The position numbers were made by a program, and so were the translations under genes. This document shows, piece by piece, positions 2,751-23,997 of a stretch of 25,906 nucleotides of DNA. The notes under the pieces were generated by a model. The model was not told where the DNA came from, did no database searches, and saw only the letters and a program-made list of their open reading frames with translations. The stretch lies in the IMG/VR virus record IMGVR_UViG_3300047561_000919, positions 1 through 25,906 of that record. One strand, given 5' to 3'. The stretch's first letter is position 1. Each line of letters starts with the position of its first letter. This DNA is from a virus. Taxonomy: Duplodnaviria; Caudoviricetes.

Positions 2751-3482
2751 ATGGAAACGAGAAACGAGAAGCAAGTAGCAATAAAGAAAGATGCACCATT
2801 ACCTTCAACAATAATGTTTGAAAGTGATGCACATGCAGGTTTTGAGAATGTAAAGCAAGGAAGTTTAGCTTTACCAATCTTAAAACTATTACAAAATGGT
2901 TCTGCTGAAGCGCAAAAGCGAAATCAAGCTTATGTAGAAGGAGCTGAACCTGGAATGTTACTAAATACAGTAACAAAGAAAGTTTATGATGGAGCTAAAG
3001 GGATAAGTGTTATTCCTTGCCATTATAGATTGGAATACCAAGAATGGTCAGACTTTGGAACAGGATCAGGAAGACCTGAACAAATCTATTCTGATAGTTC
3101 TGATATATTAACTAAAACAACTAAAGATCAAATGGGTAAAGATAGATTACCAAATGGTAATTATATCTTAACTGTTGGTCAACATTTTGTTGTAATAGTT
3201 GATAATGGTTCATCTGAAACTGCTCTTATATCTATGAGTTCATCTCAAGGTAAGATTAGTAGAAAATGGAATGCTATGATGATGTCTATCACTTTAGATG
3301 GAAAAAATGGTGTATATACTCCACCATCATTTAGCCACATTTATAATCTAAAAACCGTATTGAATTCCGGTAAAGGAAATCAATGGTATGGATACAACAT
3401 AGAAAAAGTTGGTCCAATACAAGATCCAGCAGTGTATGAAAGAGCTAAACAGTTCTATCAATCATTAGCTAACGGAAAATAG
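2751..3482 (+). CDS. Putative single-stranded DNA-binding / recombination protein
   Basis: 243 aa with a strong SD (AGGAG). Beta-rich with aromatic residues (LPILKLLQ, SRKWN, GNQWYGY) and positioned before the primase. Function is inferred from context. Confidence 0.55.
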   Translation: METRNEKQVAIKKDAPLPSTIMFESDAHAGFENVKQGSLALPILKLLQNGSAEAQKRNQAYVEGAEPGMLLNTVTKKVYDGAKGISVIPCHYRLEYQEWSDFGTGSGRPEQIYSDSSDILTKTTKDQMGKDRLPNGNYILTVGQHFVVIVDNGSSETALISMSSSQGKISRKWNAMMMSITLDGKNGVYTPPSFSHIYNLKTVLNSGKGNQWYGYNIEKVGPIQDPAVYERAKQFYQSLANGK

Positions 3483-3493
3483 TTATAACTTCT

Positions 3494-3515
3494 TGGGTGG
3501 TAGAAATACCACCCA
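3494..3515 (+). terminator. Perfect 9-bp hairpin with a GAAA tetraloop (terminator or RNA stability element)
   Basis: TGGGTGGTA-GAAA-TACCACCCA between the SSB-like and primase genes; there is no clear U-tract. Confidence 0.55.
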
Positions 3516-3533
3516 TATAAATAAGAGTGGGAT

Positions 3534-6577: not shown

Positions 6578-6789
6578 GTAACGACGCATTTTTTAAACAA
6601 ATAGGAGGAGCTCATTATAAAAAATATAAAATACAACCTTCTAGATTTATCAATGAAAATAAGATACTGTTTGCAGAAGGAAACGCAATTAAATATATCT
6701 GCAGGCATCAAGACAAAGGTAAAAAGCAAGATCTTTTAAAAGCGATTCATTATATAGAAATGATTATTGAAAGAGATTATAATGTTTGA
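6574..6789 (+). CDS. DUF3310-family protein
   Basis: QIGGAHY, EGNAIKYICR and QDLLKAIHY signature motifs. Confidence 0.85.
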   Translation: MSNDAFFKQIGGAHYKKYKIQPSRFINENKILFAEGNAIKYICRHQDKGKKQDLLKAIHYIEMIIERDYNV

Positions 6790-8722
6790 AGCACAGAAGG
6801 AATGGATTTGTCCAGAAAATTTTCCTAATCTAAAAGGTTATAGTCATGTTGCTATTGACTTAGAAACTAAAGATCCGGATCTTAAATCAATGGGATCTGG
6901 TGCAATTAGAGGTCATGGACAAATAGTTGGTATCGCTGTAGCTGTTGAAGGATGGTCTGCTTATTATCCGATAGCTCATGAAGGAGGTGGGAATCTAGAA
7001 AAAGAAAAAGTAATGGCCTGGATCAAAGAAGTTTGTTCTGCACCTAATATTAAGTTATTTCATAATGCAATGTATGACGTATGCTGGCTTCGAGCAGCGG
7101 GCATCGAGATTAAAGGAGAGATTGTAGATACTATGGTTATGGCATCTTTAATTGATGAGAATAGATTATGGTATTCTTTAAATAGTGTTTCATTTGATTA
7201 TTTAGGTAAAACTAAAAATGAAACTGCTTTAAATGAAGCAGCTCAATCTTGGGGAATAGATCCAAAGTCTGAAATGTATAAATTACCTGCTATGTATGTA
7301 GGTTCTTATGCTGAAAAAGATGCTGAGCTTACATTAGAATTATTTAAAGTATTAACTAAAGAAATAGAACTCCAAAAAATACAGCCAATATTTAAATTAG
7401 AAACAGATTTGTTTCCTTGTCTTATTGATATGAAATTTAAAGGAGTCCGAGTTGATGTAGAAAAAGCAAAATTACTGAAACAAAAGCTAACATTACAAGA
7501 AGAAGAGTTGCTAGTAAAAGTAAAACAAGAAACAGGGATAGACCCACAAATTTGGGCTGCAAAATCAATTGCCAAAGTTTTTGATAAATTAGGTTTACAC
7601 TACGAAAGAACTGAGAAATCATTAGCACCTTCCTTTACAAAGAATTTTTTACAAGAACATAAACACCCTATAGTCCAAATGATTGCCAAAGCAAGAGAAA
7701 TAAACAAAGCTCATACAACTTTTATAGATACAATTCTAAGATTTGAACATAAGGGAAGAATACATGCTGACATAAATCCAATTAGATCTGATGTTGGTGG
7801 GACAGTTACAGGAAGGTTTTCATATTCTAATCCAAATCTACAACAAATTCCGGCTAGGGATAAAAATTTAGGTCCTATGATTAGGTCTTTGTTTTTACCT
7901 GAGATAGGACATAAATGGGGATGTTTCGATTATTCACAGCAAGAACCAAGATTAGTTGTACACTACGCAGCTGAGATAGAACCTATTTGTTTTGATGAAG
8001 CTGTTGAAAACATTGTAGTAAAATTTAAAGAAGGAAATGTAGACTTTCATAAAACTGTAGCTGATATGGCAAACATATCTAGGTCTCAAGCTAAAACAAT
8101 TAACTTAGGTTTGTTTTATGGAATGGGTAAATCTAAATTACAAGCTGAATTAGGTTTATCAACTAAAGGTGAGGCTGAGAGTTTATTTAATCAATACCAT
8201 GACAACGTTCCTTTTGTTAAAGAGCTAATGACTTACACTTCTAGATTAGCAAATCAAAATGGATACATAAAAACTTTATTAGGAAGAAAATGTAGATTTG
8301 ATAAATGGGAAGTAGATGAATTTAAATTTGGAGTTATGTCTACACCTCTAACAAAAGAAGAAGCAGCTAGAAAATTTAAAGAAAATTATATTTTAAAATA
8401 TCCAGATGTAGTCAATGATGAAAAAAAAATGAAACAATTAGAAGATGAACCTAAAATTAAAAGATGTTTTACATACAAAGCATTAAACAAATTAATTCAA
8501 GGATCTGCAGCAGATATGACAAAAAAAGCTATGCTAGATTTATATAAAGAAGGTATTATACCTCATATACAAATTCATGATGAATTAGATATTTCAATTA
8601 AAAATGATTCTGAAGCTAAAAAAATTGTGCAGATAATGGAAAATGCTGTAGCAGATAAAATGTTAATACCTAACAAAGTAGATTATGAATCCGGTGAAAA
8701 CTGGGGACAAATCTTTGATTGA
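6782..8722 (+). CDS. polA: Family A DNA polymerase with a 3'-5' exonuclease domain
   Basis: Exo motifs IDLET, HNAMYD and YAEKD; TGRFSYSNPNLQQIP; motif A DYSQQE; motif B KTINLGLFYG; motif C QIHDEL. The likely start is ATG 6782. Confidence 0.96.
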   Translation: MFEAQKEWICPENFPNLKGYSHVAIDLETKDPDLKSMGSGAIRGHGQIVGIAVAVEGWSAYYPIAHEGGGNLEKEKVMAWIKEVCSAPNIKLFHNAMYDVCWLRAAGIEIKGEIVDTMVMASLIDENRLWYSLNSVSFDYLGKTKNETALNEAAQSWGIDPKSEMYKLPAMYVGSYAEKDAELTLELFKVLTKEIELQKIQPIFKLETDLFPCLIDMKFKGVRVDVEKAKLLKQKLTLQEEELLVKVKQETGIDPQIWAAKSIAKVFDKLGLHYERTEKSLAPSFTKNFLQEHKHPIVQMIAKAREINKAHTTFIDTILRFEHKGRIHADINPIRSDVGGTVTGRFSYSNPNLQQIPARDKNLGPMIRSLFLPEIGHKWGCFDYSQQEPRLVVHYAAEIEPICFDEAVENIVVKFKEGNVDFHKTVADMANISRSQAKTINLGLFYGMGKSKLQAELGLSTKGEAESLFNQYHDNVPFVKELMTYTSRLANQNGYIKTLLGRKCRFDKWEVDEFKFGVMSTPLTKEEAARKFKENYILKYPDVVNDEKKMKQLEDEPKIKRCFTYKALNKLIQGSAADMTKKAMLDLYKEGIIPHIQIHDELDISIKNDSEAKKIVQIMENAVADKMLIPNKVDYESGENWGQIFD

Positions 8723-8724
8723 TC

Positions 8725-9369
8725 ATGTCTTATTTAAATGCTAACATACCTCCATTATATTGTAACATAAGGAAGGAATATTTATATGATCTTAAACAGC
8801 ATCACGGAGAAATTGAAAATTGTGTGGTCTTTGGTATTGCGAGTATACCTGGCCGTGCAATATTATTTCATTGTTTACTTGAATCAGGTGCAATTTATTA
8901 CAGATTACCTATCAGCGCTTTTATTCAAAAAGGGTTTGATCGCAGAAACGTACCAGACCAAGATATCAATGATCTTGAGTTATGGAATTCATTTAGTTAT
9001 TTTCCTAACGTTATCCGCTTTGATTTTTTAAAAGGACAATCCTGTAAATATTTAAACAAAGGAAATACACATAATGCAGAGTATTTATTTACTATTGACT
9101 GGGCGCATCCAGATGTTAATATCTTGGATACAGAACATTCTGAAATACCTCACGAACATAAGTGCGGTCATGTTTTGGCTCTTTGTAACGGTAATTATGC
9201 AATTCAGCCTAACAATCGTATTTTGTGGAACGTGCCTAGTTTTACTACTTCACCATACAAGCCTGATTATAAAGTCCAGACTACGTATTGGAATGTAGAA
9301 AACAAAAATTGGGTAACAGAAGATTCTGACAATATGTTTTATCAAGTTAACGAAGTCAAAAAAGACTAA
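8725..9369 (+). CDS. Conserved hypothetical phage protein
   Basis: ORF starting MSYLNANIPP, with YLFTIDW, EHKCGH and QPNNRILW motifs. Confidence 0.75.
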   Translation: MSYLNANIPPLYCNIRKEYLYDLKQHHGEIENCVVFGIASIPGRAILFHCLLESGAIYYRLPISAFIQKGFDRRNVPDQDINDLELWNSFSYFPNVIRFDFLKGQSCKYLNKGNTHNAEYLFTIDWAHPDVNILDTEHSEIPHEHKCGHVLALCNGNYAIQPNNRILWNVPSFTTSPYKPDYKVQTTYWNVENKNWVTEDSDNMFYQVNEVKKD

Positions 9370-9414
9370 TCGTAATAACCCTCACAGCTGGATGCTGTAA
9401 ATCAAAAAAATATT

Positions 9415-10017: not shown

Positions 10018-10077
10018 TAGAAGCAATAATACTTTTTAATATAATTGTTTGGACATATTATACGTATTTTTATTAAA

Positions 10078-10536
10078 ATGAACTTAAGTGAAAATTTTAC
10101 ATTACAAGAATTAATTTATTCAGATACAGCAATTCGTATGGGAATAGATAATAAACCTAATGATGAAACTGTAGAAAATTTAAAAATACTTTGTGAAAAT
10201 ATATTAGAACCTATTAGAGCTAATTTCAAAGCTCCTATTGTAATATCTTCAGGCTACAGATCAGCAGCTGTCTGCGCGGCCGTAGGATCGAGCAGCAAGA
10301 GTCAACATATCAAGGGACAAGCAGCGGACTTCGAGATTTTTGGCATACCTAATAAAGACGTAGCAGATTGGATCGTAAATAATATTGACTTTGACCAATG
10401 TATTCTTGAATTCTGGAATGAAAATGAGCCTAATTCTGGATGGGTACATTGCAGCTATTCAAAAGATATTAATAGAAAACAATATTTAAAAGCTAGTAAA
10501 GAGAATGGCAAAACAGTATATTCTACAATGGTATGA
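10078..10536 (+). CDS. Peptidase M15A-family endolysin
   Basis: LSENFTLQEL, ISSGYRS, SQHIKGQAAD and GWVHCS (Zn ligands H, D, H). Confidence 0.9.
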   Translation: MNLSENFTLQELIYSDTAIRMGIDNKPNDETVENLKILCENILEPIRANFKAPIVISSGYRSAAVCAAVGSSSKSQHIKGQAADFEIFGIPNKDVADWIVNNIDFDQCILEFWNENEPNSGWVHCSYSKDINRKQYLKASKENGKTVYSTMV

Positions 10537-10857: not shown

Positions 10858-10866
10858 TATTAATCC

Positions 10867-10895
10867 TTGACTAATATAATATGAAACATTATATA
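10867..10895 (+). promoter_or_regulatory. Candidate sigma70-type promoter
   Basis: TTGACT-17nt-TATATA in an intergenic gap, upstream of SD GAAAGG and ATG 10924. Confidence 0.5.
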
Positions 10896-10923
10896 GGATA
10901 ATATAAACAAATAGAAAGGTGAA

Positions 10924-11085
10924 ATGACTGACATAACTAAATATAAAACCGTAACTTTGCCCATTAAAGATTATTTAATGTTGCCAAAGATAGCTGAAAA
11001 AATGCTTCCGGGTGGAAAATTAAGTAATTCTAAAGTAGTTTCAATGTTAATTAGAAAGAACTCAAATGGAAAACATAACAAGTAA
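10924..11085 (+). CDS. Small putative DNA-binding protein (ribbon-helix-helix-like, 53 aa)
   Basis: MTDITKYKTVTLPIKDYLML...LSNSKVVSMLIRK with SD GAAAGGTG; strand-helix-helix pattern. Confidence 0.6.
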   Translation: MTDITKYKTVTLPIKDYLMLPKIAEKMLPGGKLSNSKVVSMLIRKNSNGKHNK

Positions 11086-12391: not shown

Positions 12392-12627
12392 TGAAGAACC
12401 GTAAAATTGATATAGAGTTAAAATTACTTTACGAAGATTTAATGGAAATAATGATGTCTAAAGTATTAATACATAAAGATTCTCAAGTAGTGGCATCAAC
12501 AATGGTTGCACTTGCATTAAGACTTTATAAAACAACTTTAAGCCAATCTGAATTTAAAGATATGTTAAAAATAGTAGTTAAAAACGCTAAATCAATTGAA
12601 CCTTTTACTGTTAGGAGATTACATTAA
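12391..12627 (+). CDS. Hypothetical protein
   Basis: 78-aa ORF, TAATG-coupled. Confidence 0.65.
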   Translation: MKNRKIDIELKLLYEDLMEIMMSKVLIHKDSQVVASTMVALALRLYKTTLSQSEFKDMLKIVVKNAKSIEPFTVRRLH

Positions 12628-12843: not shown

Positions 12844-13551
12844 ATGAGCGATTATAGAATAAAAGTAAGTATAAGAAATAATAGATTGTTAAAAGCCATG
12901 GAAGCAAAAGGATTTAAATCTGCAGCGCAATTTGAAAGATCTTATGGTTTTCGTAATTATGCCATGATTAGTTTAGTGAATGGTTCTAAACCCCCATTAG
13001 ATAAAAACGGTGAAACAAAACCATTTGTAAAAGAAATTTTAGATATATTGGAAATAAATATTACAGATGCTTTTACTGAAAAACAATTACAAGGTTTTAA
13101 AAAACATACATTTACTGTGGAGGCTAAAGAATCTCAATTATTACAGTTAATAAATATTAGAAAACCTTTAGAAATAAATTTAATGCAAAAAGACATTAAT
13201 AAATTAATTGATAATTTATTATCAAGTTTACCAAAACAATATGAAAAGGTAATTAGAATGTATATGTTTGAAAATAAAAGAAAATGTGAAATTGCGTCAC
13301 AACTAAATCTTTCCTCTTCTAGAATAGACCAGATAGTAGAAAAAGGAATAGAAAAATTAAAAACTCATTCTAATTTTGATAAATTAATTGAATCTGGCGC
13401 TGTTGATTTATTTGAAAATACTAAATTTAAAAAACCAAAAACATCTTATACACGTTTTAACCCTAAAAAAACATTACCTCCTGATGTTGTAGATCAAATG
13501 AATTGGGTATCAAAAGAAGCTATATTAGAAAATAAAAAAAATGACAATTAA
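12844..13551 (+). CDS. Transcription regulator with a sigma70 region-4-like HTH
   Basis: LSSLPKQYEKVIRMY...EIASQLNLSSSRIDQIVEKGIEKLK; possible N-terminal Xre-like HTH. Confidence 0.7.
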   Translation: MSDYRIKVSIRNNRLLKAMEAKGFKSAAQFERSYGFRNYAMISLVNGSKPPLDKNGETKPFVKEILDILEINITDAFTEKQLQGFKKHTFTVEAKESQLLQLINIRKPLEINLMQKDINKLIDNLLSSLPKQYEKVIRMYMFENKRKCEIASQLNLSSSRIDQIVEKGIEKLKTHSNFDKLIESGAVDLFENTKFKKPKTSYTRFNPKKTLPPDVVDQMNWVSKEAILENKKNDN

Positions 13552-14113: not shown

Positions 14114-14780
14114 ACAATTCGAGTATCCTAAGTCTATGCGCTCTCTTGTTAAAGATGAAAGACACTATGAAGTTGGCTCCGAGAAGCTTCCTTCTGTGAC
14201 CACGATATTAGCAGCCACACAAAGCGACGAAAAGCGAGCGTCTTTGGAGGCTTGGAAGAATAGAGTTGGTGGTGTTGAGGCGGATAGAATTAAAAATACT
14301 GCAGCTACACGTGGTACCGCAATGCATTCCTATCTGGAGATGCATTTAAATGGTCAGGGGTTACTAGATTTGACTGACGAGGGGCGAGCAGCGAGGGGCA
14401 TGGCACAAACTATCATTGATAAAGGATTAATTGATTTAGAAGAAATTTGGGGTTCAGAAGTGACTTTGTATTATCCAGGGCTATATGCTGGAGCAACTGA
14501 TTTGTGTGGAATTTATCAAGGGCGCGACAGTATAATAGACTTTAAACAAAGCAACAAGCCCAAAAGAGATGAATGGATAGAGGATTATAAACTTCAACTA
14601 GCAGCCTATGCTTCCGCTCACGACTATGTTTATAAAACAAACATTGAACAGGGAGTTATATTAATGGTGACTCCTGATAATTTCTTTCAAAGGTTTATTA
14701 TTAATGGAAGCCAGTTTAGAGAATATAAATGGATGTGGCTTGAAAAAATAGATCAATATTATGCCTTACAAAAACCCTAA
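14100..14780 (+). CDS. PD-(D/E)XK exonuclease (Cas4/RecB-like fold)
   Basis: LPSVTTIL, RGTAMH, YAGATD, IIDFK, QLAAY. Confidence 0.85.
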   Translation: MKWNKQFEYPKSMRSLVKDERHYEVGSEKLPSVTTILAATQSDEKRASLEAWKNRVGGVEADRIKNTAATRGTAMHSYLEMHLNGQGLLDLTDEGRAARGMAQTIIDKGLIDLEEIWGSEVTLYYPGLYAGATDLCGIYQGRDSIIDFKQSNKPKRDEWIEDYKLQLAAYASAHDYVYKTNIEQGVILMVTPDNFFQRFIINGSQFREYKWMWLEKIDQYYALQKP

Positions 14781-15414
14781 AGTAATTAAAGAATATCTAA
14801 AAGATTATTATATTAAGAATAAAGAAGGAATTCTTAAGGATGCAGCGTTATATTATGAAACAAATAAACAAAAAATAAAAATACGAAATAAAAAATATTA
14901 CCAACAAAATAAAGAAGAAATTAAAAAAAGAACAAGCGACTATCGTGAAAAAAATAAAGATAAAGTTCAAGTATATGAAAAGAATCGTTATGCAAATAAT
15001 AAAGAAAATAAGCTTGCTGGAAGTAAAATCTATTATCAAAATAATAAAGAAAAATTAAATAAACAAAGATTGATATATCAAGCCAACAGAAGAAAGAACA
15101 ACCCTTCATACAGATTGATATGTAACGTAAGAAGAAGAACTGCTGGAGCATTAAAAGGTAGTACAAAAAGCGCAGGAACTATGATTTTGTTAGGAATTCC
15201 TGATGTAGAGTTTTTATGGAAACATTTAGAAGCAACATTTAAACATGGTATGACAAGGGAGAACCATGGTAGTATTTGGCATATAGATCATATTATACCG
15301 TGTTCTTCATTTGATATGAGTGATCCTGAGCAACAAAAAAAGTGTTTTCATTATACTAATCTTCAAGCTTTGTTTGTTCATGAAAATCTATCTAAAGGTT
15401 CTAAAATACTGTGA
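14761..15414 (+). CDS. HNH/endonuclease VII-like protein with N-terminal YYxxNKE repeats
   Basis: WHIDHIIPCSSF...CFHYTNLQAL...NLSK; repeated YYETNKQ, YYQQNKE and YYQNNKE. Confidence 0.8.
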   Translation: MPYKNPKVIKEYLKDYYIKNKEGILKDAALYYETNKQKIKIRNKKYYQQNKEEIKKRTSDYREKNKDKVQVYEKNRYANNKENKLAGSKIYYQNNKEKLNKQRLIYQANRRKNNPSYRLICNVRRRTAGALKGSTKSAGTMILLGIPDVEFLWKHLEATFKHGMTRENHGSIWHIDHIIPCSSFDMSDPEQQKKCFHYTNLQALFVHENLSKGSKIL

Positions 15415-15644: not shown

Positions 15645-15740
15645 TTTCTAACTGCTCGATACTCAACACTTTTGTCTAGAATAGAGAACAAAAGTAGGTT
15701 TAGAGTAGGCTGAGGGGAGCTTCAAGGGGCGAGCGACGGG

Positions 15741-15950: not shown

Positions 15951-16000
15951 TTTTCGCGTAATTATATTTCAAAAGATATGTAATATCACTATATAGGGTA

Positions 16001-16255
16001 ATGAACTTTAAATATGAATTATATAAGATTAGTTGGGAAGATATTTTAAGTGATTCCGCATGGGCTACTGATACAGAATTTGATCGCATGGAAGTAAGCC
16101 ACTGTATTTCAATTGGTTTTATTTATAAAAAAACAAAAGATTATGTTTGGATATTTTCATCATATGAGATAGATAACTTGGGCGAGATTACATACGGGGA
16201 TCGTACTGTAATTCCTGCAAACAACATCAAAAAAATGGAGAAAATCAATGGTTAA
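16001..16255 (+). CDS. Conserved hypothetical phage protein
   Basis: ISWEDILSDSAW...CISIGF...GDRTVIP. Confidence 0.7.
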   Translation: MNFKYELYKISWEDILSDSAWATDTEFDRMEVSHCISIGFIYKKTKDYVWIFSSYEIDNLGEITYGDRTVIPANNIKKMEKING

Positions 16256-16421: not shown

Positions 16422-16969
16422 TTAACTTCTAATACTTCTTTCTTTTTGGGTTGTTGAGGTTTACCTAGTCTAATTTTCTTTTGTCTAGACTTAACGTCCT
16501 CCTCAAGGTCTTTAACTTCAACACCCTCAAGAAGAGGTTTGTAGTCTTCCATAATTTCCTTTAATCTATTTTCTAATTCATCAGCCGATAGATCTTCTAG
16601 CTTCCCGGTTCTAATAATCTTTTGTTCAACATATAAACCAGCTGCTTTTCCTCTAGCCACCTCAGCATTAATAGCTGCTGACCAAGCTCCCTTATCTCTT
16701 GATGAATCTCTAAGTTTTGCAAGTTCAGTTATATGACGTTCAAATGTAACATTATATTTCTTTTGATATTCAACTCTAAGTTCTCCAATGTATTGGACAA
16801 CTAATGGATATCTTTTTGGATTTTGTAATTCAGAAGCTCTAACAACAGCAGATTCTTTATCATATCCTGCATCAATAGCACATTCTGTTGCAGTTTTTCT
16901 TCCTTCGTTACTTACTATTTCGTATGCAAATTTCATTTGCATTTCTGTTAATTTCTTTGGAAGTCCCAT
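16343..16969 (-). CDS. terS: Terminase small subunit-like protein
   Basis: LTEMQMKFA...TATECAIDAGY...ASELQNP HTH, followed by AAINAEVARGKAAGLY. The likely start is ATG 16969. Confidence 0.75.
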   Translation of the reverse strand: MGLPKKLTEMQMKFAYEIVSNEGRKTATECAIDAGYDKESAVVRASELQNPKRYPLVVQYIGELRVEYQKKYNVTFERHITELAKLRDSSRDKGAWSAAINAEVARGKAAGLYVEQKIIRTGKLEDLSADELENRLKEIMEDYKPLLEGVEVKDLEEDVKSRQKKIRLGKPQQPKKKEVLEVNYSSSESSSSESSSSQSSGPSESESA

Positions 16970-16972
16970 GTA

Positions 16973-17005
16973 TTGACATGTAAAGTAATTCAGAGTAAAA
17001 GTCAA
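16973..17005. promoter_or_regulatory. Second pair of overlapping divergent promoter candidates
   Basis: TTGACA (+, 16973-16978) and TTGACT (-, 17005-17000) with weak -10 boxes (TAAAAG / TACATG) at 17 nt. Confidence 0.45.
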
Positions 17006-17068
17006 TCAGGGATGGCTTACGAGGGAAGAAAGCTTTATTGCTCCCAGATACTGATCCCTACAAAATTC

Positions 17069-17100
17069 CCAGCCAGTTATCTCCATGATTGGCTGGTTTT
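17069..17100 (+). terminator. Intrinsic terminator-like hairpin
   Basis: CCAGCCAGTTA-loop-TGATTGGCTGG (11 bp with G-U pairs) followed by TTTT. Confidence 0.55.
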
Positions 17101-17105
17101 AAATT

Positions 17106-17342
17106 ATGATTAATAGTAAAACATTACTAGATATTCTTCATAGGTTAATGAAAAAATCAGAAGCTGTGTCTAATGCAAGAATACAAGTTCAAATGCCTAA
17201 TGGCGATTTACACGATATTACACAAATTAAATTAATGGAAAACATGGTTATTGGACAATATGAAACTCATAGACTTGTGTTAAAAACAGAACCTCAAAAA
17301 CATAAAATGTCTAAGATTATTAACTCTAGTCAGATAGTCTAG
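17106..17342 (+). CDS. Hypothetical protein
   Basis: 78-aa ORF. Confidence 0.65.
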   Translation: MINSKTLLDILHRLMKKSEAVSNARIQVQMPNGDLHDITQIKLMENMVIGQYETHRLVLKTEPQKHKMSKIINSSQIV

Positions 17343-17347
17343 TTACT

Positions 17348-17710
17348 TTGAAACCCGAGACTAAATTCTGGCATGATGTTAAGAAGTTTATGCCGAACAT
17401 ATCGTTCACAAGAGTAGAAAATATAAGCGCTCATGGCACTCCAGATCTATTATGTTATAACAAGAATGGTACATTTTTTACTATTGAACTTAAAGTTAGT
17501 ACGAGTAATTCAGTTCGTCTCTCGCCACATCAAATAAGCTTCCATGTACGCCATCCTAAGAATACATTTATCTTAGTATTAGCTGCTACACTCAAGAGCG
17601 AAAAACTTTATGACGGAAGCCAAGCACTCGACCTCGCTGCTCGTGGCTTGAAGCTAGATCCTCGTTGCTCGGGGCTTGCTGCTTGCTACGATCTTTTTCA
17701 AACTCTGTAG
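17348..17710 (+). CDS. VRR-NUC/Holliday-junction-resolvase-like PD-(D/E)XK nuclease
   Basis: PETKFW, RVEN...GTPDL, IELK, LSPHQISFH. Confidence 0.8.
   Translation: MKPETKFWHDVKKFMPNISFTRVENISAHGTPDLLCYNKNGTFFTIELKVSTSNSVRLSPHQISFHVRHPKNTFILVLAATLKSEKLYDGSQALDLAARGLKLDPRCSGLAACYDLFQTL
17633..17685 (-). repeat. Phased heptamer array, 8 units of CTYG/CTAG-NNN
   Basis: Units start at 17633, 17640, 17647, 17654, 17661, 17668, 17675 and 17682. Confidence 0.85.
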
Positions 17711-17739
17711 TCAGCGGTTTGTCCCACGCAGGTTTGCGT

Positions 17740-17928
17740 CTAGCGTCCAGGCTTATAACCGTCATGCTTCCTTGTTCGTTTATACTTATCGTCAAAGCTT
17801 TCTTCCTTACGTCTATCTATTATCATTATTACCCAGATAACAGTTGCTCCTATCGCCATACTTAAAGCTAGGAACGAGATAAACAATCCATATAGTTCTG
17901 ATAATGTATCAATCATTAGTTTCTCCAA
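17740..17928 (-). CDS. Small membrane protein (early-type operon)
   Basis: Hydrophobic core with a charged C-terminal tail. Confidence 0.55.
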   Translation of the reverse strand: MEKLMIDTLSELYGLFISFLALSMAIGATVIWVIMIIDRRKEESFDDKYKRTRKHDGYKPGR

Positions 17929-18149
17929 TCAGTTAGTTTGTCGTTCATTGCATCTTCTAAAATCTCAGCCTCAGCTATAATATCTTCATCAGCTGCTAGT
18001 GCCTTGCTTCTCGCTTCATCAATAAACATAGTCGAGAGATGGGAAGCGCGCATCATGGCTTCTCCCTCAGTATATTTACCATCTAACCAATCTTTAAAAT
18101 ATTTGTTAGATAGATCTTCTATTGTGCTAATCGTATTAATCATTGTCAT
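17916..18149 (-). CDS. Small acidic hypothetical protein (early-type operon)
   Basis: ORF 17916..18158; SD GAAAGGA favours a start near 18149. Confidence 0.6.
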   Translation of the reverse strand: MTMINTISTIEDLSNKYFKDWLDGKYTEGEAMMRASHLSTMFIDEARSKALAADEDIIAEAEILEDAMNDKLTDWRN

Positions 18150-18282
18150 CTTGTTCATCCTTTCTAGTTATTATGTTTCTTGCTTGCTCTACTGTAAGCC
18201 TATCGTTTAGAATATGCAATAGCATATCTTGTATCTCATCAGCATCAGAGCTCCAGTTCCACAGGTCTTTGTTTGTCATCAT
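18136..18282 (-). CDS. Small protein (48 aa), first gene of the leftward operon, not in the ORF track
   Basis: MMTNKDLWNWSSDADEIQDMLLHILNDRLTVEQARNIITRKDEQDDND; strong SD AAGGAG. Confidence 0.65.
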   Translation of the reverse strand: MMTNKDLWNWSSDADEIQDMLLHILNDRLTVEQARNIITRKDEQDDND

Positions 18283-18302
18283 ATCTTTCTCCTTGTTAAT
18301 AT

Positions 18303-18331
18303 ATCCTACTTTATCCTATTACTATTGTCAA
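18303..18331 (-). promoter_or_regulatory. Strong leftward sigma70 promoter
   Basis: TTGACA-17nt-TAGGAT on the - strand, upstream of SD AAGGAG; TAGGAT occurs twice. Confidence 0.7.
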
Positions 18332-18340
18332 GTCAATAGG

Positions 18341-18426
18341 TGTGACATAATGTTGCAGCCTCGGTGCTTGCTGCTCGTGGCTAGATGCATGAGACGAGTA
18401 GCAAGTCAATGCGACATATTGTCGCA
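18341..18426. repeat. Two operator-like palindromes flanking an orientation-switching heptamer array
   Basis: TGTGACA-TAA-TGTTGCA (18341-18357) and TGCGACA-TAT-TGTCGCA (18410-18426); the array spans 18360-18405. Confidence 0.8.
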
Positions 18427-18703
18427 GGCTTGCCTTATTGTTGCCACAATTCGCGCCAGTTGCGCGGCCGCCACCGGTGGGATACTGGCGTAGTGGTACA
18501 GGTGACGGGCGGCGTCGGCATCTCACACCACATAGAGGGGTCCCTATCACTTTAAAGATCATTATTTGTTTTAAAATATCAATTACCCCTATTTAAAAAG
18601 GGGACCCAGGTTTTCCCCCTTGCGCCTTGATTTAGCCTTTTAGAGGTGCTAAAAACATATTAACATCAAAACAGTAGATGCAAAAAATTTTATAAAAAAT
18701 TTT

Positions 18704-20176
18704 ATGGAAATTGATTTAGAAAAGATAAAGAAGTTACCACCTGACATTAGAAAAGAATATTTAAAAACTCTTTTAATGGCAAAAGAAAAAAGAAAGATTG
18801 AAAAAATAAATGTAGATTTTTTATCTTTTGTTAAACATGTTTGGCCAGAATTTATTCAAGGTTATCATCATAAAAAAATTGCAGAAAAATTTAATGATTT
18901 GGCTCAAGGTAAAATTAAAAGGCTTATTATCAATATGCCACCAAGACATACAAAGTCTGAGTTCGCTTCGTTCTTGCTGCCAGCATGGATGATTGGGCAA
19001 CGACCTAAATTAAAGATAATTCAAACGACTCACACCACAGAATTAGCGGTTAGGTTTGGTCGTAAGGCTAAAACATTAATGGACACAGAAGAATACAAAC
19101 AAGTTTTTAAAACAAGATTAAGAGAAGATAGTCAGGCGGCTGGTAAATGGGAAACAGAACAAGGAGGCGAGTACTTTGCAGCGGGTGTTGGTGGAGCTAT
19201 TACTGGACGAGGTGCAGATCTATTAATTATTGACGATCCACATTCTGAACAGGATGCTCTAAATGTTGATGCGTTAGAGCGTGCATACGAGTGGTATACA
19301 TCTGGACCTAGACAGCGTTTACAACCAGGTGGAGCAATCGTTGTGGTTATGACAAGATGGAATACAAAAGATTTAACTGGAAAGTTGTTACAAGCATCTG
19401 GAGATATTAAATCAGATAAATGGGAGATAATAGAATTTCCAGCAATACTTCCATCAGGTAAACCTATTTGGCCAGAGTATTGGAAGCTTGAAGAATTAGA
19501 GGCTGTTAAAGCATCATTAAGTTTACCTAAGTGGAATGCTCAATGGATGCAAAATCCAACATCAGAAGAAGGAGCTATCATTAAACGTGAATGGTGGAGT
19601 AAATGGGATAGTGAATCTATACCTGATCTTTACCATGTCATACAATCTTACGATACGGCATTTATGAAAAAAGAAACTGCCGATTATTCAGCTATAACTA
19701 CTTGGGGAGTATTTTATCATTCAGAAGATTCTGGCCCCCAGTTAATATTATTGGATGCAATTAAGAAACGATTAGAGTTTCCAGAGCTTAGAAGACTTGC
19801 ATATGAACAGTTTAGATATTGGAATCCTGATACTGTACTTGTTGAATCTAAAGCTTCTGGACTTCCTTTAACATATGAATTACGTAAAATGGGAATCCCA
19901 GTTATCAACTTTACACCAAGTAAAGGAAATGATAAGCATACCCGTGTTAACAGTGTTGCACCTCTATTTGAGAGTGGCTGCATATGGGCACCTACTCACA
20001 AAAGCTTTGCTCAAGAAGTAATTGAAGAGTGTGCTGCGTTTCCTTATGGAGACCATGATGACCTTGTTGACTCCATGACTCAAGCAGTTATGCGTTTTAG
20101 ACAAGGTGGTTTTATTGAACATCCTGAGGATTACGTTGAAGAAGAAGTAATCCACGAGGAAAAGGAATTGTATTAA
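18704..20176 (+). CDS. terL: Terminase large subunit
   Basis: NMPPRHTKS (Walker A), LLIIDD (Walker B), and nuclease motifs SYDTAF, ADYSA and HDDLVDS. Confidence 0.95.
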   Translation: MEIDLEKIKKLPPDIRKEYLKTLLMAKEKRKIEKINVDFLSFVKHVWPEFIQGYHHKKIAEKFNDLAQGKIKRLIINMPPRHTKSEFASFLLPAWMIGQRPKLKIIQTTHTTELAVRFGRKAKTLMDTEEYKQVFKTRLREDSQAAGKWETEQGGEYFAAGVGGAITGRGADLLIIDDPHSEQDALNVDALERAYEWYTSGPRQRLQPGGAIVVVMTRWNTKDLTGKLLQASGDIKSDKWEIIEFPAILPSGKPIWPEYWKLEELEAVKASLSLPKWNAQWMQNPTSEEGAIIKREWWSKWDSESIPDLYHVIQSYDTAFMKKETADYSAITTWGVFYHSEDSGPQLILLDAIKKRLEFPELRRLAYEQFRYWNPDTVLVESKASGLPLTYELRKMGIPVINFTPSKGNDKHTRVNSVAPLFESGCIWAPTHKSFAQEVIEECAAFPYGDHDDLVDSMTQAVMRFRQGGFIEHPEDYVEEEVIHEEKELY

Positions 20177-20177
20177 T

Positions 20178-21227
20178 ATGAATAAATTTTTAGCAGAGCT
20201 TTTACAATTGGCAAAAGAAGTTGGAGTTAATCCTGCAAAACTTGCTGGTACAAGAACTAATATTACACCAATAACAAAACCATCTCTTACAAGAATCAAT
20301 GTAGATCCCGTTAGACTTAAAGCTGCATTTGAAGATGGATCTCTTTCTAAAGAAGAAGTTAAAAGACAAATTGAAGAAGTTATTTCTTTAGGCATGGCTG
20401 GAAAATTAAATGATGTTGAGATGAGTAAAGCTATTAGTAACATTAGATCTGGAAGAGACGCTATTAATCCTCCAGCAGCTGATATTGTAGATATGGGTAG
20501 CAAGCAGCGAGTAGCTGGTGAAGGATTAGAATCTTTAAAAGAACAAGCTGGATTATCTGCACGTCCAGGATCTCCTATTGGTGATTTAGAATTGAGAAGC
20601 AAACAGCTAGTACAAAAAGCTGGTGGTATAGAACAAGCTTTAAAAGAAAAACCATCTGATATAAAATCTATCTTAGATGATTTTATGAAAGGTCAAACAA
20701 CTCAAAATGATTTAAATAAAGAAGGTTTAGTTAGAGCAACTGTTAGAAATATTATGGAGAATGATATTAAAGCAGGAAAATTAAAAAATTTAAAAAAAGG
20801 GGATCTATATGACAAAGATCCCATCGAACATTTTAGAATTAATTATGGTGAGGATGCTTTAGAACAAATAGATAGTTTAGCTCCTGATTTTAGAAATTTA
20901 TACACAGCAGATGAAGCTGAAAAATTAGTTAGATCTAAATTTGAATTAGAACCAAAAGCAAAACCAAGTGATGAATTAAATCCATTTATAACAGAAGAAA
21001 AAGCAAAAGGCGGAAGAGTTGGTTATGCAAGTGGGTCTAAGTTAACTGACACAGGTAAATCTTTAGAAGAAAGTATTAAGGAAGAACATAAATCTTATAA
21101 TAATTATAGAAAATCTATTGATGAAGCACCTATACCATTAGATGATGAATATATTAGAATGTGGATACGAAGTAGATTAAAATCAGGTGGCCCTGCAGAG
21201 GGATTAGATTATTTAGTAGGAGAATAA
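20178..21227 (+). CDS. Probable virion-associated hypothetical protein
   Basis: Helical 349-aa ORF between terL and portal; KAKGGRVGYASG and LKSGG motifs. Confidence 0.6.
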   Translation: MNKFLAELLQLAKEVGVNPAKLAGTRTNITPITKPSLTRINVDPVRLKAAFEDGSLSKEEVKRQIEEVISLGMAGKLNDVEMSKAISNIRSGRDAINPPAADIVDMGSKQRVAGEGLESLKEQAGLSARPGSPIGDLELRSKQLVQKAGGIEQALKEKPSDIKSILDDFMKGQTTQNDLNKEGLVRATVRNIMENDIKAGKLKNLKKGDLYDKDPIEHFRINYGEDALEQIDSLAPDFRNLYTADEAEKLVRSKFELEPKAKPSDELNPFITEEKAKGGRVGYASGSKLTDTGKSLEESIKEEHKSYNNYRKSIDEAPIPLDDEYIRMWIRSRLKSGGPAEGLDYLVGE

Positions 21228-21228
21228 T

Positions 21229-21396
21229 ATGGAAACAGGTAGATATAAACAAGCAATGAGTTTTTTAATGAATCCAAAATACATAAGAAACGATTTTGTA
21301 ATACCTAAAAGACCTGTTTCAATAGAAGAATTACAAATGCCTGAAACAAACATTACTGAAGAAGACAATAAAACATTACTAACTTCAGAAGAATAG
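21229..21396 (+). CDS. Small hypothetical protein (55 aa)
   Basis: METGRYKQAMSFLMNPKY...; SD AGGAG. Confidence 0.6.
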   Translation: METGRYKQAMSFLMNPKYIRNDFVIPKRPVSIEELQMPETNITEEDNKTLLTSEE

Positions 21397-21401
21397 ATCA
21401 T

Positions 21402-21551
21402 ATGGTTTCAGTTAAAAGACTAACAACAACCATACCACCTTTAAAGGGGCCATGTTCGCAAGGCTTGAATATGCCTAATAAAAAGGTTAAGGTGGTAGCT
21501 TCGGAGAAAAATAATAATGGCAGATATAGACAAGGCACTTCCAAACGTTGA
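21402..21551 (+). CDS. Small protein (49 aa) overlapping the portal start
   Basis: MVSVKRLTTTIPPLKGPCSQGL...; fills the gap before the portal gene. Confidence 0.5.
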   Translation: MVSVKRLTTTIPPLKGPCSQGLNMPNKKVKVVASEKNNNGRYRQGTSKR

Positions 21552-23997
21552 TCAGCAATTTAAAGTCCCGACTGAAGAGGAATTAATACAACAAGAACAA
21601 TTCCCTGAAGCAAAAGGACCTACTGATGTTACTGAGAACGAAGATGGAAGTGTTGATATTAACTTTGACCCTCGTAGCACGCCGCTAGACGCTGGCAAAG
21701 ATCATTTTGCAAATTTAGCAGAAGTTTTAGACGACGATATTTTAGGACCTATTGGCTCAGAGCTAATGGATGATTATACAGATTATAAATCTTCACGAGA
21801 AGATTGGGAAAGAACTTATACAAACGGATTAGATCTTTTAGGATTTAAATACGAACGTAGAACTCAGCCATTCAGAGGAGCATCGGGTGCGACGCATCCA
21901 GTACTTGCAGAAGCTGTAACTCAGTTTCAAGCTTTAGCATATAAAGAATTATTACCAGCAGAAGGACCAGTTAGAACTCAGATTATGGGAGCTGCAACTC
22001 CTGAGAAGGAGCAGCAAGCAGCGAGAGTCAAGGAATACATGAATTATCAAATCATGGATGTCATGAAAGAGTATGAGCCAGAGTTTGATCAAATGTTATT
22101 TTATTTACCATTATCAGGATCTACATTTAAAAAAGTTTATTATGATTCAGTATTAGGAAGACCAGTATCTCAATTTATTCAAGCAGAAGATTTAATTGTT
22201 CCTTACACAGCAACTTCTATTGAAGATGCTGATGCAGTTATTCATGTACTTAAAGTTTCTGAAAACAATTTACGTAAACAACAAGTATCAGGATTCTATA
22301 AAGATATAGAATTAACTCCAACGGACGATGATGCTGTTACTAATCAATTAGATGAAGCTAAGAGAAGAATAGAAGGAATTAGAAAAACACAAGGTGCAGA
22401 TGTTTATACATTATTAGAATGTCATATTAATTTGGATATTGAAGGATTCGAAGATATGGATGCTTCTGGTGAGCCCACAGGTATTAAACTTCCATACATT
22501 GTAACTGTAGAAGAAGCTTCTAGAAAAGTTTTATCTATTAAAAGAAACTGGAAACAAGAAGATCCTAAAAAAGAAAAGATTCAATATTTTGTACACTTTA
22601 AATTTTTACCAGGTTTAGGTTTTTATGGATTTGGATTAATTCATATGATTGGTGGTTTATCTAGAACTGCAACAAGTGCTTTAAGACAATTAATTGATGC
22701 AGGTACATTATCTAATTTACCAGCTGGATTTAAAACAAGAGGTATTAGAGTAAGAGACGATTCACAACCTATTCAACCAGGTGAATGGAGAGATGTTGAT
22801 GCCCCAGGAGGAAATCTTAAAGATTCATTTATGCCACTTCCATTTAAAGAACCTTCGCAAACATTACTTGCTTTAATGGGTGTTGTTGTTCAAGCAGGAC
22901 AAAGATTTGCATCAATTGCTGATTTAAATGTTGGTGATGGTAATCAACAGGCAGCTGTTGGTACAACTGTTGCTTTACTTGAAAGAGGAAGTAGAACAAT
23001 GTCAGCTATTCATAAAAGAATTTACGCAGCTTTAAAACAAGAGTTCGGACTATTAGCTACACAATTTAAAGTTAATTTACCACCGGTATATCCATACGAT
23101 GTTATTGGTGGACAAAGACAAATTAAGCAAGCTGATTTTAATGATAACGTTGCAATTGTTCCAGTTGCAGATCCAAATATATTTTCACAAACACAAAGAA
23201 TATCTTTAGCACAAACTGAAATGCAACTTGCTGCAGCTAATCCTGGAATTCATAATACATATGAAGTTTACAGAAATATGTACGAAGCATTAGGAGTAAA
23301 AGATATTGATAAGATTTTAATTCGACCACAACAACCACAACCAAAGGACCCTGCACTAGAACACATTGATGCTCTTGCAGGGAAACCGTTCCAAGCATTC
23401 CCTGGACAAGATCATAGATCTCATATTACTTCACACTTAAGTTTTATGGCAACAAACATGGCAAAAAATGCTCCAGTGGTTATGGCTGCATTAGAAAAAA
23501 ATATTTTTGAACATATTTCTATTATGGCTCAAGAACATACACAGATAGAATTTCAAAATGAGATACAACAATTACAAATGATGACTCAACAGATGCAACA
23601 AATGGGTCAACAGAATCCACAGGTGATGCAACAAATGCAAACACAAGCTAAAATGCTTCAAGAAAAGATTGAAGCTAGAAAATCACAATTAATTTCTGAT
23701 GCAATGGAAGAATTTTTAAAGGAAGAACAACAAATTTCATCACAATTTGGAAATGACCCAATTGCAATGTTAAGATCTAGAGAGTTAGATCTTAGAGCTC
23801 AGGAAAATGCTATTAAAGAAGAACAAGCTAAGGAAAGAATTAACCTTGACAAGATGAGAGCTATGATGAATCAATCTACTCAAGACGAAAAACTACAGCA
23901 AAATGAAGATTTAGCTAAGATGAGAGCCAGTACTTCTTTACAAAAGACAGTGTTATCTGCTAAGTTAAAAAAAGATAGTGAAAATTTTAAAAAATAA
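21517..23997 (+). CDS. Portal protein (podovirus type) with a long Q/M-rich coiled-coil C-terminus
   Basis: 826 aa downstream of terL; HPVLAEAVTQFQA, LSGSTFKKVYYD and GFYGFGLIH motifs; helical barrel-like tail. Confidence 0.85.
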   Translation: MADIDKALPNVDQQFKVPTEEELIQQEQFPEAKGPTDVTENEDGSVDINFDPRSTPLDAGKDHFANLAEVLDDDILGPIGSELMDDYTDYKSSREDWERTYTNGLDLLGFKYERRTQPFRGASGATHPVLAEAVTQFQALAYKELLPAEGPVRTQIMGAATPEKEQQAARVKEYMNYQIMDVMKEYEPEFDQMLFYLPLSGSTFKKVYYDSVLGRPVSQFIQAEDLIVPYTATSIEDADAVIHVLKVSENNLRKQQVSGFYKDIELTPTDDDAVTNQLDEAKRRIEGIRKTQGADVYTLLECHINLDIEGFEDMDASGEPTGIKLPYIVTVEEASRKVLSIKRNWKQEDPKKEKIQYFVHFKFLPGLGFYGFGLIHMIGGLSRTATSALRQLIDAGTLSNLPAGFKTRGIRVRDDSQPIQPGEWRDVDAPGGNLKDSFMPLPFKEPSQTLLALMGVVVQAGQRFASIADLNVGDGNQQAAVGTTVALLERGSRTMSAIHKRIYAALKQEFGLLATQFKVNLPPVYPYDVIGGQRQIKQADFNDNVAIVPVADPNIFSQTQRISLAQTEMQLAAANPGIHNTYEVYRNMYEALGVKDIDKILIRPQQPQPKDPALEHIDALAGKPFQAFPGQDHRSHITSHLSFMATNMAKNAPVVMAALEKNIFEHISIMAQEHTQIEFQNEIQQLQMMTQQMQQMGQQNPQVMQQMQTQAKMLQEKIEARKSQLISDAMEEFLKEEQQISSQFGNDPIAMLRSRELDLRAQENAIKEEQAKERINLDKMRAMMNQSTQDEKLQQNEDLAKMRASTSLQKTVLSAKLKKDSENFKK

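Follow-up and report, generated by a model that had tools for sequence, protein, structure and literature searches.

Genomes of a freshwater pelagiphage and its relatives carry arrays of a degenerate four-base box, better written as C-N-N-G repeated every 7 bp, with CRAG preferred and the linkers free. The arrays exact a cost at synonymous sites, are polarised in two domains and form an inverted cluster between the genes for the small and large terminases (terS and terL), next to a small terminase of SF6 type. A sequence-only reading of this DNA had proposed a directional cis-signal bound cooperatively by a phage protein, and a selected signal of that kind is borne out by the free linkers, the bent codon choice, the conserved architecture and the joint gain and loss of arrays. 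The reading we prefer, tentatively and at somewhat less than even probability, is that the heptad arrays are a terminase docking code, read by the small terminase, which gives packaging both identity and direction.

The DNA analysed is a stretch of 25,906 nucleotides (the window), which on sequence grounds is from a freshwater HTVC023P-type pelagiphage. In sequence comparison its TerL is 76% identical to that of HTVC027P and 61.5% to that of HTVC023P, and TerL, PolA, the helicases and the marker order are common to all three. The relatives, the GC content of 32% and the freshwater runs point to SAR11 (LD12) as the putative host. Both cultured phages, HTVC023P and HTVC027P, carry heptad arrays, dispersed copies included. 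HTVC023P-type phages have been ranked among the most abundant pelagiphages, in a paper whose accessible text holds nothing relevant to heptad arrays (PMC9599517); the isolation preprint uses the words 'repeat' and 'termini' 0 times. No account of heptad arrays was located in the open-access literature searched, nor did the searchable papers describe termini, packaging mode or cis-signals for HTVC023P-type phages.

Every CRAG or CTYG unit that had been named from the sequence was found in its place, and 14385-14396 is indeed the exact reverse complement of 17632-17643. Against 1000 shuffles that kept each gene's protein and codon use, period-7 CRAG arrays stood far above the null: the plus strand had 12 same-strand pairs, where the null averaged 1.27 and peaked at 6, the minus strand had 9 (mean 1.37, maximum 5), and there were 7 triples (mean 0.21, maximum 3). 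With the C-N-N-G unit, triples numbered 10 against 0.6 outside the interval from the VRR-NUC gene to terL and 12 against 1.8 inside it, each reached by 0/300 shuffles. Some arrays had to be redrawn. The units at 17633-17685 form a single continuous array of eight, and those at 18360-18377 and 18395/18402 belong to one continuous array of seven (18360-18405), whose phase is unbroken across the polarity switch (CTCG, CTTG, CTCG, CTAG, CATG, CGAG, CAAG). Overlooked earlier were the mixed array 21671-21695 in the portal gene, the minus pair 18619/18626 and the pair 7940/7947 in polA, the last probably forced by the polA motif QQEPRL. Arrays in the window are spaced 1.3-4.3 kb apart (Table 1). Rfam gave no match, and a general repeat search missed the arrays because their linkers differ.

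Table 1. Arrays, associated elements and genes in the window. GC3 is given at the array against the gene mean, with the share of comparison windows as high.
Feature	Position	Strand	Remarks	GC3
3-unit array immediately downstream of the start codon, Pam3 gp34-like (SSB-like) gene	2758..2775	+	recurrent in relatives	0.42 against 0.19; 0/227 other windows
4-unit array inside polA	7084..7108	+	kept in the window's subclade	0.23 against 0.15; 35/619
Two short arrays (10289/10296; 10311-10335), M15 peptidase gene	10289..10335	+		0.38 against 0.25; 1/105
53-aa ribbon-helix-helix-like (RHH-like) protein	10924..11085	+		
4-unit array (three CGAG and CATG), PD-(D/E)XK exonuclease gene	14378..14402	+	most recurrent dispersed site	0.65 against 0.31; 0/205
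3-unit intergenic array	15723..15740	+	no further plus array until terS	
Small terminase, SF6-type N-terminal helix-turn-helix	16343..16969	-		
VRR-NUC/resolvase-like nuclease	17348..17710	+	left border of minus cluster; weak PHROG matches	
8-unit array over 3' end of VRR-NUC gene	17633..17685	-	antisense to VRR-NUC; the family's most constant array	
3-unit array inside leftward ORF 17916-18158	17996..18013	-		
Leftward sigma-70-like promoter TTGACA-17-TAGGAT	18303..18331	-	consensus match only	
Two GCGAC-N5-GTCGC-type palindromes (18342-18356, 18411-18425)	18342..18425	.	flank the switch array	
7-unit in-phase array	18360..18405	.	spans the polarity switch	
Conserved AGAGG(G)T(A/C)CC motif	18534..18544	+	precedes terL; may be a cut site or part of a late promoter	
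Large terminase	18704..20176	+	right border of minus cluster	
3-unit array, gene after terL	20501..20518	+		
4-unit mixed-orientation C-N-N-G array, portal gene	21671..21695	.		
3-unit array, portal gene	22015..22032	+	lineage-specific (site turnover)	0.08 at this position in relatives; not conserved

The box stands out solely where it recurs in 7-bp phase. Scans with control periods or with the pattern reversed gave 1 control match in 32 records, and flanking units are C-N-N-G in 21-25% of cases in phase, palindromic CTAG and CATG included, but in 2-6% when out of phase. Of the pairs of adjoining heptads in phage arrays, 35/1010 and 65/1862 are identical (about 3%; random pairing 6-7%), whereas in bacterial heptamer arrays the figure is 458/641 (71%), which argues that the phage arrays did not arise by slippage. 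It had been expected that the arrays would constrain synonymous positions, and GC-rich synonymous codons do keep the boxes, as seen in the sense pairs of relatives and in the GC3 peaks. Sense pairs exceed synonymous expectation in ssb (28 against 1.0), the exonuclease gene (90 against 13.8), polA (50 against 14.5), uvrD (17 against 6.8) and the M15 gene (12 against 1.6), and across the plus genes of 23 records (149 against 33.0). Antisense pairs in VRR-NUC number 731 against 122 in 161 dereplicated genes, many of them fetched by the pattern itself.

Across 519 related loci, 157/175 C-N-N-G chains outside the VRR-NUC-to-TerL interval face the plus direction and 420/487 inside it face minus; CDAG arrays in 28 records divide 45/45 and 43/47. 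The skew inverts at defined points, as in systems of the KOPS and Chi type. The polarity described earlier holds as a strong tendency, not as an absolute rule. The companion claim, that neither coding nor transcription explains the arrays, stands for the period and only in part for the orientation: synonymous shuffles of plus genes yield CRAG pairs 12 times as often as CTYG pairs (33.0 against 2.7), and the minus arrays of the window sit at or downstream of the leftward promoter (18331). Minus-strand genes were discarded as a test of genome against transcript polarity, having low power (81 kb held one array). The SNF2 and TerS genes are array-poor and lean opposite ways on a handful of events; in minus-strand SNF2 the few chains lean to the genome plus orientation (5/6 triples), and one subclade has one minus array in terS. 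Plus arrays become denser toward the cluster (0.20, 0.75 and 1.48 per 10 kb), a gradient that may come from the tolerance of accessory genes.

Arrays reach 13 exact units, with several arrays per cluster, and dispersed and clustered arrays appear and vanish together across the family. In a sister clade with period 8/4 there is no excess of dispersed period-7 pairs (11 against 11.2), which links clustered and dispersed arrays as one system. An exact 4-mer de novo scan missed the degenerate arrays of HTVC023P and DSL-LC04; the same scan, blind to degenerate arrays, found nothing in Synechococcus phage MinM2.

Many arrays of the cluster, which is placed between terS and terL, adjoin promoters. 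Of the 140 cluster arrays outside VRR-NUC, 73 stop no more than 35 bp from a leftward -35 box (random 2.8%), against 1/140 with the box at the opposite end and 1/42 rightward promoters with an array; none of 121 dispersed arrays precedes a promoter. In the window the leftward promoter is about 30 bp from the switch array, whose two halves (18365-18378, 18394-18408) make up an inverted repeat that is imperfect (folding z -2.8, 1/200 shuffles equally good). The four relatives with the shortest interval (495-691 bp) keep both minus heptad pairs and the AGAGGT(A/C)CC motif, while no leftward promoter was found in them, which argues against an explanation by transcription. AGGGGTC occurs in 109/162 terL upstream regions, 17/70 regions with the AGAGGT(A/C)CC motif have an in-phase chain within 110 bp (null 0.14%), and in DSL-LC04 two chains of six units stand 270-500 bp ahead of terL. 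The suggestion that the polarity switches bracket an origin and a genome end gains no support from contig ends, as the assembled contigs share none, and GC skew tracks gene strand and gives no independent origin signal. Of four runs, two show raised summed contig depths, which can serve as a hint only, in parts of 16925-18434 (57 against 35-42 in one, 14.8 against 6.2-6.7 in the other), whereas depth in the remaining two is flat. A 35-bp repeat near 18430 is where contigs break.

The small terminase is the leading candidate reader and the RHH-like protein the second. TerS has matches to Pam5 TerS (21DI, E 2.6e-5) and SF6 TerS (4ZC3, E 4.5e-4); its single-sequence fold is poor (pLDDT 46), and an alignment-based model (pLDDT 72) matches SF6 TerS only at E 0.27-0.46. 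For the RHH-like protein the nearest named clusters are RHH_1 (score 0.90-0.91, a lead only). Period is tracked equally well by TerS, the RHH-like protein and neighbouring genes, and follows clade, not TerS alone. Counting changes on gene trees was given up as a means of naming the reader, as RHH, TerS, VRR-NUC and exonuclease require 2, 3, 2 and 2 (48 rows, only 4 of period 8) and do not discriminate. Nor does the repeat change with the TerS recognition helix: phages that share the CAAGC unit carry very different helices. A rule that a short helix-turn-helix turn excludes period 7 was also abandoned: with the CRAG/CDAG unit, 0/38 rows with a 6- or 7-residue turn had period 7, but with a neutral unit 10/60 do, a 90-residue length filter had dropped the counter-example L199, and an independent-pairs test found only 2 supported pairs. 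The 84-aa gene at 16001 was rejected as an Sm-like reader, with no named family match.

Two described packaging systems frame the docking proposal. Published accounts place the SPP1 pac repeats between terS and terL (PMC4737164) and describe an HK97 small terminase that moves along with the motor while reading the DNA in a direction-dependent way (PMC10370121). The pelagiphage arrays likewise lie in or beside terS, with a helix-turn-helix small terminase. On this view the small terminase would dock cooperatively on heptad arrays. The cluster would serve as a pac/cos signal of unusual length, while the dispersed copies would label the concatemer both as phage DNA and as having a direction. That units in one phase can face either way suggests a repeating protein on double-stranded DNA as the reader. 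The interval from VRR-NUC to terL may hold the packaging start or genome ends; plus arrays may be passed over by the motor or used for loading, and the inverted cluster might position or stop the motor for a cut near the conserved motif before terL. A more specific form, in which terminase-read arrays orient and license the motor as KOPS do and the inverted junction cluster sets start or stop, we consider unlikely. Some points weigh against docking. A spacing of 7 bp does not match the helical turn, so that no single ring could wrap around all of an array; the -35 adjacency of cluster arrays fits a transcription factor better than a terminase; and we know of no packaging system that requires sites across a whole genome.

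That adjacency leads to the alternative that the boxes are operators for a small dimeric RHH protein (perhaps that at 10924-11085), with each box taking one dimer as omega/parS does. Such a protein would control leftward early promoters and coat the dispersed sites, where it would form roadblocks or have an architectural role. We regard it as rather doubtful, though credible. In the accessible text on pSM19035, omega binds 7-10 contiguous heptads, direct or inverted, overlapping promoters (PMC9499535), and ParG of TP228 is described with 4-bp boxes and 4-bp spacers at period 8 (PMC3130281), while the phage family has periods 7 and 8; both proteins need two or more units, by the same partial sources. 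The in-phase C-N-N-G flanks, CTAG and CATG included, agree with such a protein, as does the presence of the RHH-like gene family-wide in two types that match the two clades. Yet two MAD-type RHH rows have period 7, and the 200 bp upstream of RHH-like genes hold a same-strand heptad pair in 0/149 cases (a reverse pair in 7), their promoters bearing another motif, ATCC(C/T)A. Box period, phase and (in the cluster) promoter adjacency resemble omega/ParG, but the protein's own promoter does not. The dispersed arrays without promoters and the arrays that persist where a leftward promoter was not found also count against it, strict domain polarity is left unexplained by proteins that tolerate inverted boxes, and annotation shows no ParA-like gene, either for the 41 proteins scanned in the window or for four isolate genomes.

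An alternative we think unlikely is that the arrays polarise replication or recombination as KOPS, Chi or Ter do, as sites where the phage's primase, helicase or helicase-nuclease loads or stops; the divergent switch near terL would then be an origin or end junction and the convergent point near terS a trap. The two-domain polarity, the density of plus arrays immediately left of the minus cluster, the kilobase spacing and the SNF2 triples would suit it; among the phage's genes are those for an AEP primase, UvrD-like and SNF2-like helicases, an exonuclease and the resolvase-like nuclease, and on trees of the replication genes array type needs 2 changes. Each Chi, KOPS or primase site, however, is one short word and lacks both the period-7 repetition and the two-fold core, GC skew marks no independent origin, one subclade's minus array lies within terS, and HTVC027P has strong arrays yet an SSB-like protein only 28% identical to that of the window. 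Reading by a host protein or a bacterial heptamer-repeat pathway, with the phage copying a host-type signal, is less probable again. Bacteria do hold a five-heptad CAAGC pattern (120 stretches in 2/64 parts scanned, about 5200 estimated), and at L521, 1 of 80 bacterial loci examined, a four-helix-bundle-like ORF lies beside the array; but bacterial arrays are of slippage type, none of the 80 bacterial record titles listed (from those 2/64 parts) names a Pelagibacterales genome, and the period shifts with phage clade, as expected of a phage-encoded reader. Neutral microsatellite expansion with amino-acid motifs and coding-strand purine bias has scarcely any probability left and is largely refuted. 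Some pairs are protein-forced (polA 7940; LDPW in SNF2), the shuffle null itself has a 12:1 sense bias, and the VRR-NUC tail peptide is conserved over its array; against this stand the excess over synonymous shuffles (reached in 0/300 and 0/1000), linker identity at or below random, the GC3 peaks and the near-empty controls.

Genome-wide oriented motifs are familiar from KOPS/FtsK, Chi/RecBCD and the mycobacteriophage L5 stoperators, with Ter/Tus a further comparison; T7 has heptamer arrays next to the phage ends, and lambda cosB and P1 pac are comparable terminase recognition sites. To our knowledge KOPS, Chi, Ter, stoperators and T7 arrays are either single words or restricted to the ends, none of them is a phased C-N-N-G array with free linkers in genes, and we know of no pac or cos site or phage operator that is a phased polar code costing synonymous codons in essential genes. 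The degenerate box sets the phage arrays apart from single fixed words of the KOPS/Chi kind, which FtsK or RecBCD/AddAB read. Omega/parS and ParG/parH share contiguous short-core repeats (7 bp in omega, 8 bp in ParG), direct and inverted units in one phase and overlap with promoters, but have six or two sites on a plasmid, a ParA partner and little dependence on orientation; here a lytic phage has arrays throughout coding DNA and two polarity domains, with no ParA seen. SPP1/SF6 pac with G1P offers an SF6-type small terminase and repeats beside terS and over promoters, but in the accessible accounts those repeats are few and local and the SF6 DNA-binding domain is non-specific, unlike the 7-bp phase, long multiple arrays and genome-wide co-oriented copies seen here. 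Polar sites could serve a directional sequence check in packaging as in the HK97 sliding/termination model, in which, as far as the accessible text goes, one 15-bp-scale site at cos is read by a DNA-threaded ring; the family TerS resembles SF6 TerS, whose channel is reported as too narrow. Bacterial heptameric repeats have an identical CAAGCNN consensus and period, but are homogeneous and intergenic.

How SF6-type small terminases gain specificity is an open question (PMC9611059). The arrays may provide a handle on it, or be a phage counterpart of omega/parS or KOPS, with the period-8 sister clade as a natural specificity control. They also explain the odd Cys/Leu/Ala-rich spurious ORFs and the assembly breaks in this region.

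The window, 25.9 kb long with 32% GC, is part of the genome of an HTVC023P-type podovirus, with a TerL that is 76% identical to that of Pelagibacter phage HTVC027P and 61.5% to that of HTVC023P. It shares with these isolates the gene order SNF2 helicase, Pam3 gp32/33/34-like, AEP primase, UvrD, PolA, M15, exonuclease, terS (minus strand), VRR-NUC, terL and portal. Ten runs hold at least one third of it, six labelled freshwater metagenome and four metagenome; we infer that the host is LD12. One gene, HNH/endonuclease VII-like, is missing from a strain in one run. In some freshwater relatives (L098, L116, L420, L425) the SNF2 helicase gene has relocated and lies between terS and VRR-NUC on the + strand; their array architecture is the same.

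All of the array units listed by the sequence-only reading were found in the window. There are 12 period-7 CRAG pairs on the + strand and 9 on the − strand, compared with 1.27 and 1.37 in shuffles keeping protein and codon use, none of 1000 reaching either count. The two arrays beginning at 17633 and 18360 are present but each is a single run, the phase of the latter (the switch array) being unbroken across its units. Positions in phase with and adjoining CRAG runs hold C-N-N-G in 188 of 876 cases for dispersed arrays and 252 of 1070 for the cluster (the arrays between VRR-NUC and terL); the corresponding out-of-phase figures are 2% and 6%. The commonest such neighbours are CTAG, CATG, CRGG and CTGG, and reversed CTYG is enriched too; the array unit is wider than CRAG. 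C-N-N-G triples in the window number 10 outside and 12 inside this interval, against 0.6 and 1.8 (0/300 shuffles), and this neutral unit recovered an extra array (see table).

Coordinates of arrays and neighbouring features
Record	Position	Feature
Window	10860-10923	ATCC(C/T)A / TAGGAT motif, promoter of RHH-like gene
Window	10924-11085	53-aa RHH-like protein
Window	12844-13551	sigma-70 region-4 HTH protein
Window	14761-15414	HNH/endonuclease VII-like gene
Window	16001-16255	84-aa beta-rich protein
Window	17633	single 8-unit array
Window	18342-18356; 18411-18425	GCGAC-N5-GTCGC palindromes flanking switch array
Window	18360-18405	switch array, single 7-unit run
Window	18403-18434	contig breaks in three runs
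Window	18430-18464	site of 35-bp direct repeat in one freshwater run
Window	18534-18544; 18597-18607	AGGGGTCCC/GAGGTACC motifs
Window	21671	extra array found with C-N-N-G
L001 (marine relative)	17800-18150	hairpin-like elements
L003 (HTVC023P)	12490-12565	three 33-bp direct repeats after terS
L003 (HTVC023P)	14930-15065	repeated GAGAATAACAACGAAA words after VRR-NUC

A five-heptad CAAGC pattern matched an estimated 1900 or so IMG/VR stretches, and 147 loci were stored. An HTVC023P-type marker occurs in 139 of these, seven of the other eight being fragments below 700 bp. In all 107 loci that include VRR-NUC, the array runs antisense to this gene. Both cultured members carry dispersed arrays, with triples outside the interval at 21 vs 1.6 in HTVC027P and 12 vs 1.0 in HTVC023P (0/100 shuffles). 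Among 168 distinct intervals, a biased sample as many loci were fetched by the array pattern itself, the period is 7 in 114, 8 (often as period-4 runs) in 30 and unclear in 24. Dispersed pairs in the period-8/4 sister clade show no excess at 7, 4 or 8 (11 vs 11.2, 12 vs 11.7, 7 vs 10.0), whereas those in the period-7 clade reach 149 vs 33.0 at distance 7 and 78 vs 25.5 at 14; cluster and dispersed arrays therefore behave as one system. Per 10 kb, the structural half has 0.20 plus arrays, the replication genes have 0.75, the stretch from purM to VRR-NUC has 1.48 and the part after terL has 0.49.

Neighbouring heptads in the phages are identical in 35/1010 and 65/1862 pairs, where random pairing expects 6-7%, while bacterial arrays matched by the same pattern have 458/641 identical. 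The phage arrays are selected sites, not microsatellites. CAAGCNN repeats are widespread in bacteria (L494-L613: Pseudomonas, Halomonas, Bacteroidota, Planctomycetota), often as inverted pairs. Against synonymous shuffles, sense pairs are in excess in the ssb-like gene (28 vs 1.0), exonuclease (90 vs 13.8), polA (50 vs 14.5), uvrD (17 vs 6.8) and M15 (12 vs 1.6); the excess is weak for terL, primase and portal and absent from purM, g2190, capsid, SNF2 and terS. In relatives, G/C third positions at the sites of the window's exonuclease and ssb-like arrays are more frequent than in every other segment of these genes, but the portal site is lineage-specific. Dispersed arrays are fixed sites plus turnover.

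CDAG arrays in 28 long records (1.05 Mb) lie on + in 45/45 cases outside the interval and on − in 43/47 inside. Distinct C-N-N-G chains of at least four units, which come from related and hence non-independent loci (519/577 orientable), split into 157 plus, 9 minus and 9 even outside the interval, while those inside it comprise 420 minus, 35 plus and 32 even; a count on 28 records gives 39/6/11 (plus/minus/even) outside and 46/4/6 (minus/plus/even) inside. The proposed strand polarity is therefore pronounced without being absolute. Most genes lie on +, where CRAG pairs already outnumber CTYG pairs 12 to 1 in the shuffled null, so dispersed polarity could partly be a by-product. Minus-strand genes have little power here: 5/6 SNF2 triples lean to genome +, and the two terS triples, from one subclade, are sense.

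Within the cluster, 73 of 140 non-VRR arrays end no more than 35 bp (mostly 4-12 bp) from a leftward −35 box, compared with 2.8% of random positions; the association falls to 1/140 at the other array end, 1/42 for rightward promoters and 0/121 for dispersed arrays. The four shortest intervals (L083, L073, L061, L082; 495-691 bp) keep 2-4 minus pairs and an AGAGGT(A/C)CC motif, and the search pattern found no leftward promoter in them. The claim that neither coding nor transcription direction explains the arrays is partly supported: coding does not account for the period and these minimal intervals speak against transcription, but the coding bias of the null and the tie to leftward promoters weaken it. 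Mixed-orientation chains precede the AGAGGT(A/C)CC motif in 17/70 regions, and the sharing of one phase by units of either orientation suggests that double-stranded DNA is recognised through a repeating, roughly two-fold contact.

The GCGAC-N5-GTCGC palindromes, with at most one mismatch, occur inside the interval in 12 of 44 long records and outside it in one. We take them to resemble the RegR/PrrA box of alphaproteobacteria, and by this analogy a redox regulator of the host may control the early promoters. About two thirds of 162 terL upstream regions, from every clade, have the AGGGGTCCC/GAGGTACC motifs at a distance of 100-300 bp from terL. They are candidates for a cut site or for part of a late promoter; GGGCCCACCC repeats occur upstream of terL in the period-8/4 clade. 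At 18430-18464, a contig from one of the freshwater runs carries a direct repeat of 35 bp together with 123 additional bases, and the window may hold a short allele or collapsed repeat there. The non-coding divergence region of marine relatives (L001 and the intervals of L072, L084 and L034) contains repeated GC-rich hairpin-like elements of the form CTGATCCC...GGGATCAG. Both repeat sets of HTVC023P are separate from the heptads.

The suggestion of a directional cis-signal bound cooperatively by a phage protein stands to this extent: the arrays are very probably under selection and bind a protein cooperatively, whichever protein that is. The split between periods 7 and 8 is explained equally by trees of RHH, TerS, VRR-NUC and exonuclease (2, 3, 2 and 2 changes), and a rule linking TerS HTH turn length to array period looked strong and then failed with the neutral unit C-N-N-G; on these grounds the reader is not singled out. 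TerS is SF6-type (profile matches to Pam5 TerS, E 2.6e-5, and SF6, E 4.5e-4; predicted model pLDDT 72). An 84-aa protein of no named family adjoins terS and was detected in 121/137 intervals.

Our tentative preference is for terminase docking, with TerS as candidate reader and the cluster as a pac-like docking array beside terS/terL. The cluster sits where the pac repeats of SPP1 lie (PMC4737164) and is kept in minimal intervals, adjacent to a conserved motif before terL, and the HK97 small terminase can check sequence directionally in packaging (PMC10370121). Against docking, the SF6 domain is non-specific (PMC4737164), binding by pac-type TerS tends to be weak (PMC9611059), and phages that share the array unit differ freely in the recognition helix, so that the unit does not change with it. 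That the arrays are boxes of an RHH system is a less likely reading: their geometry is closest to omega, whose 7-bp heptads lie over promoters in mixed orientation (PMC9499535), and ParG, with an 8-bp period (PMC3130281), and the protein with RHH-like neighbours is family-wide, in two clade types. However, its own promoter carries heptads in 0/149 cases and a different motif instead. ATCC(C/T)A / TAGGAT, which overlaps the −10 region of this promoter and of the interval early promoters in either orientation, is likely the RHH protein's own operator. A replication or recombination polarity signal is unlikely, and a host-type signal improbable.

In line with the sequence-only reading, no description of such arrays was found in the open-access literature, term searches of the isolation preprint (10.1101/2019.12.14.876532) and an 80-genome study (PMC9599517) returning no mention; 10.1101/2022.09.19.508504 did not bear on them. 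The arrays would work like an omega/parS or a pac array, a likeness only as regards membership of either class, and differ from both in being genome-wide, with two-domain polarity inside coding DNA.
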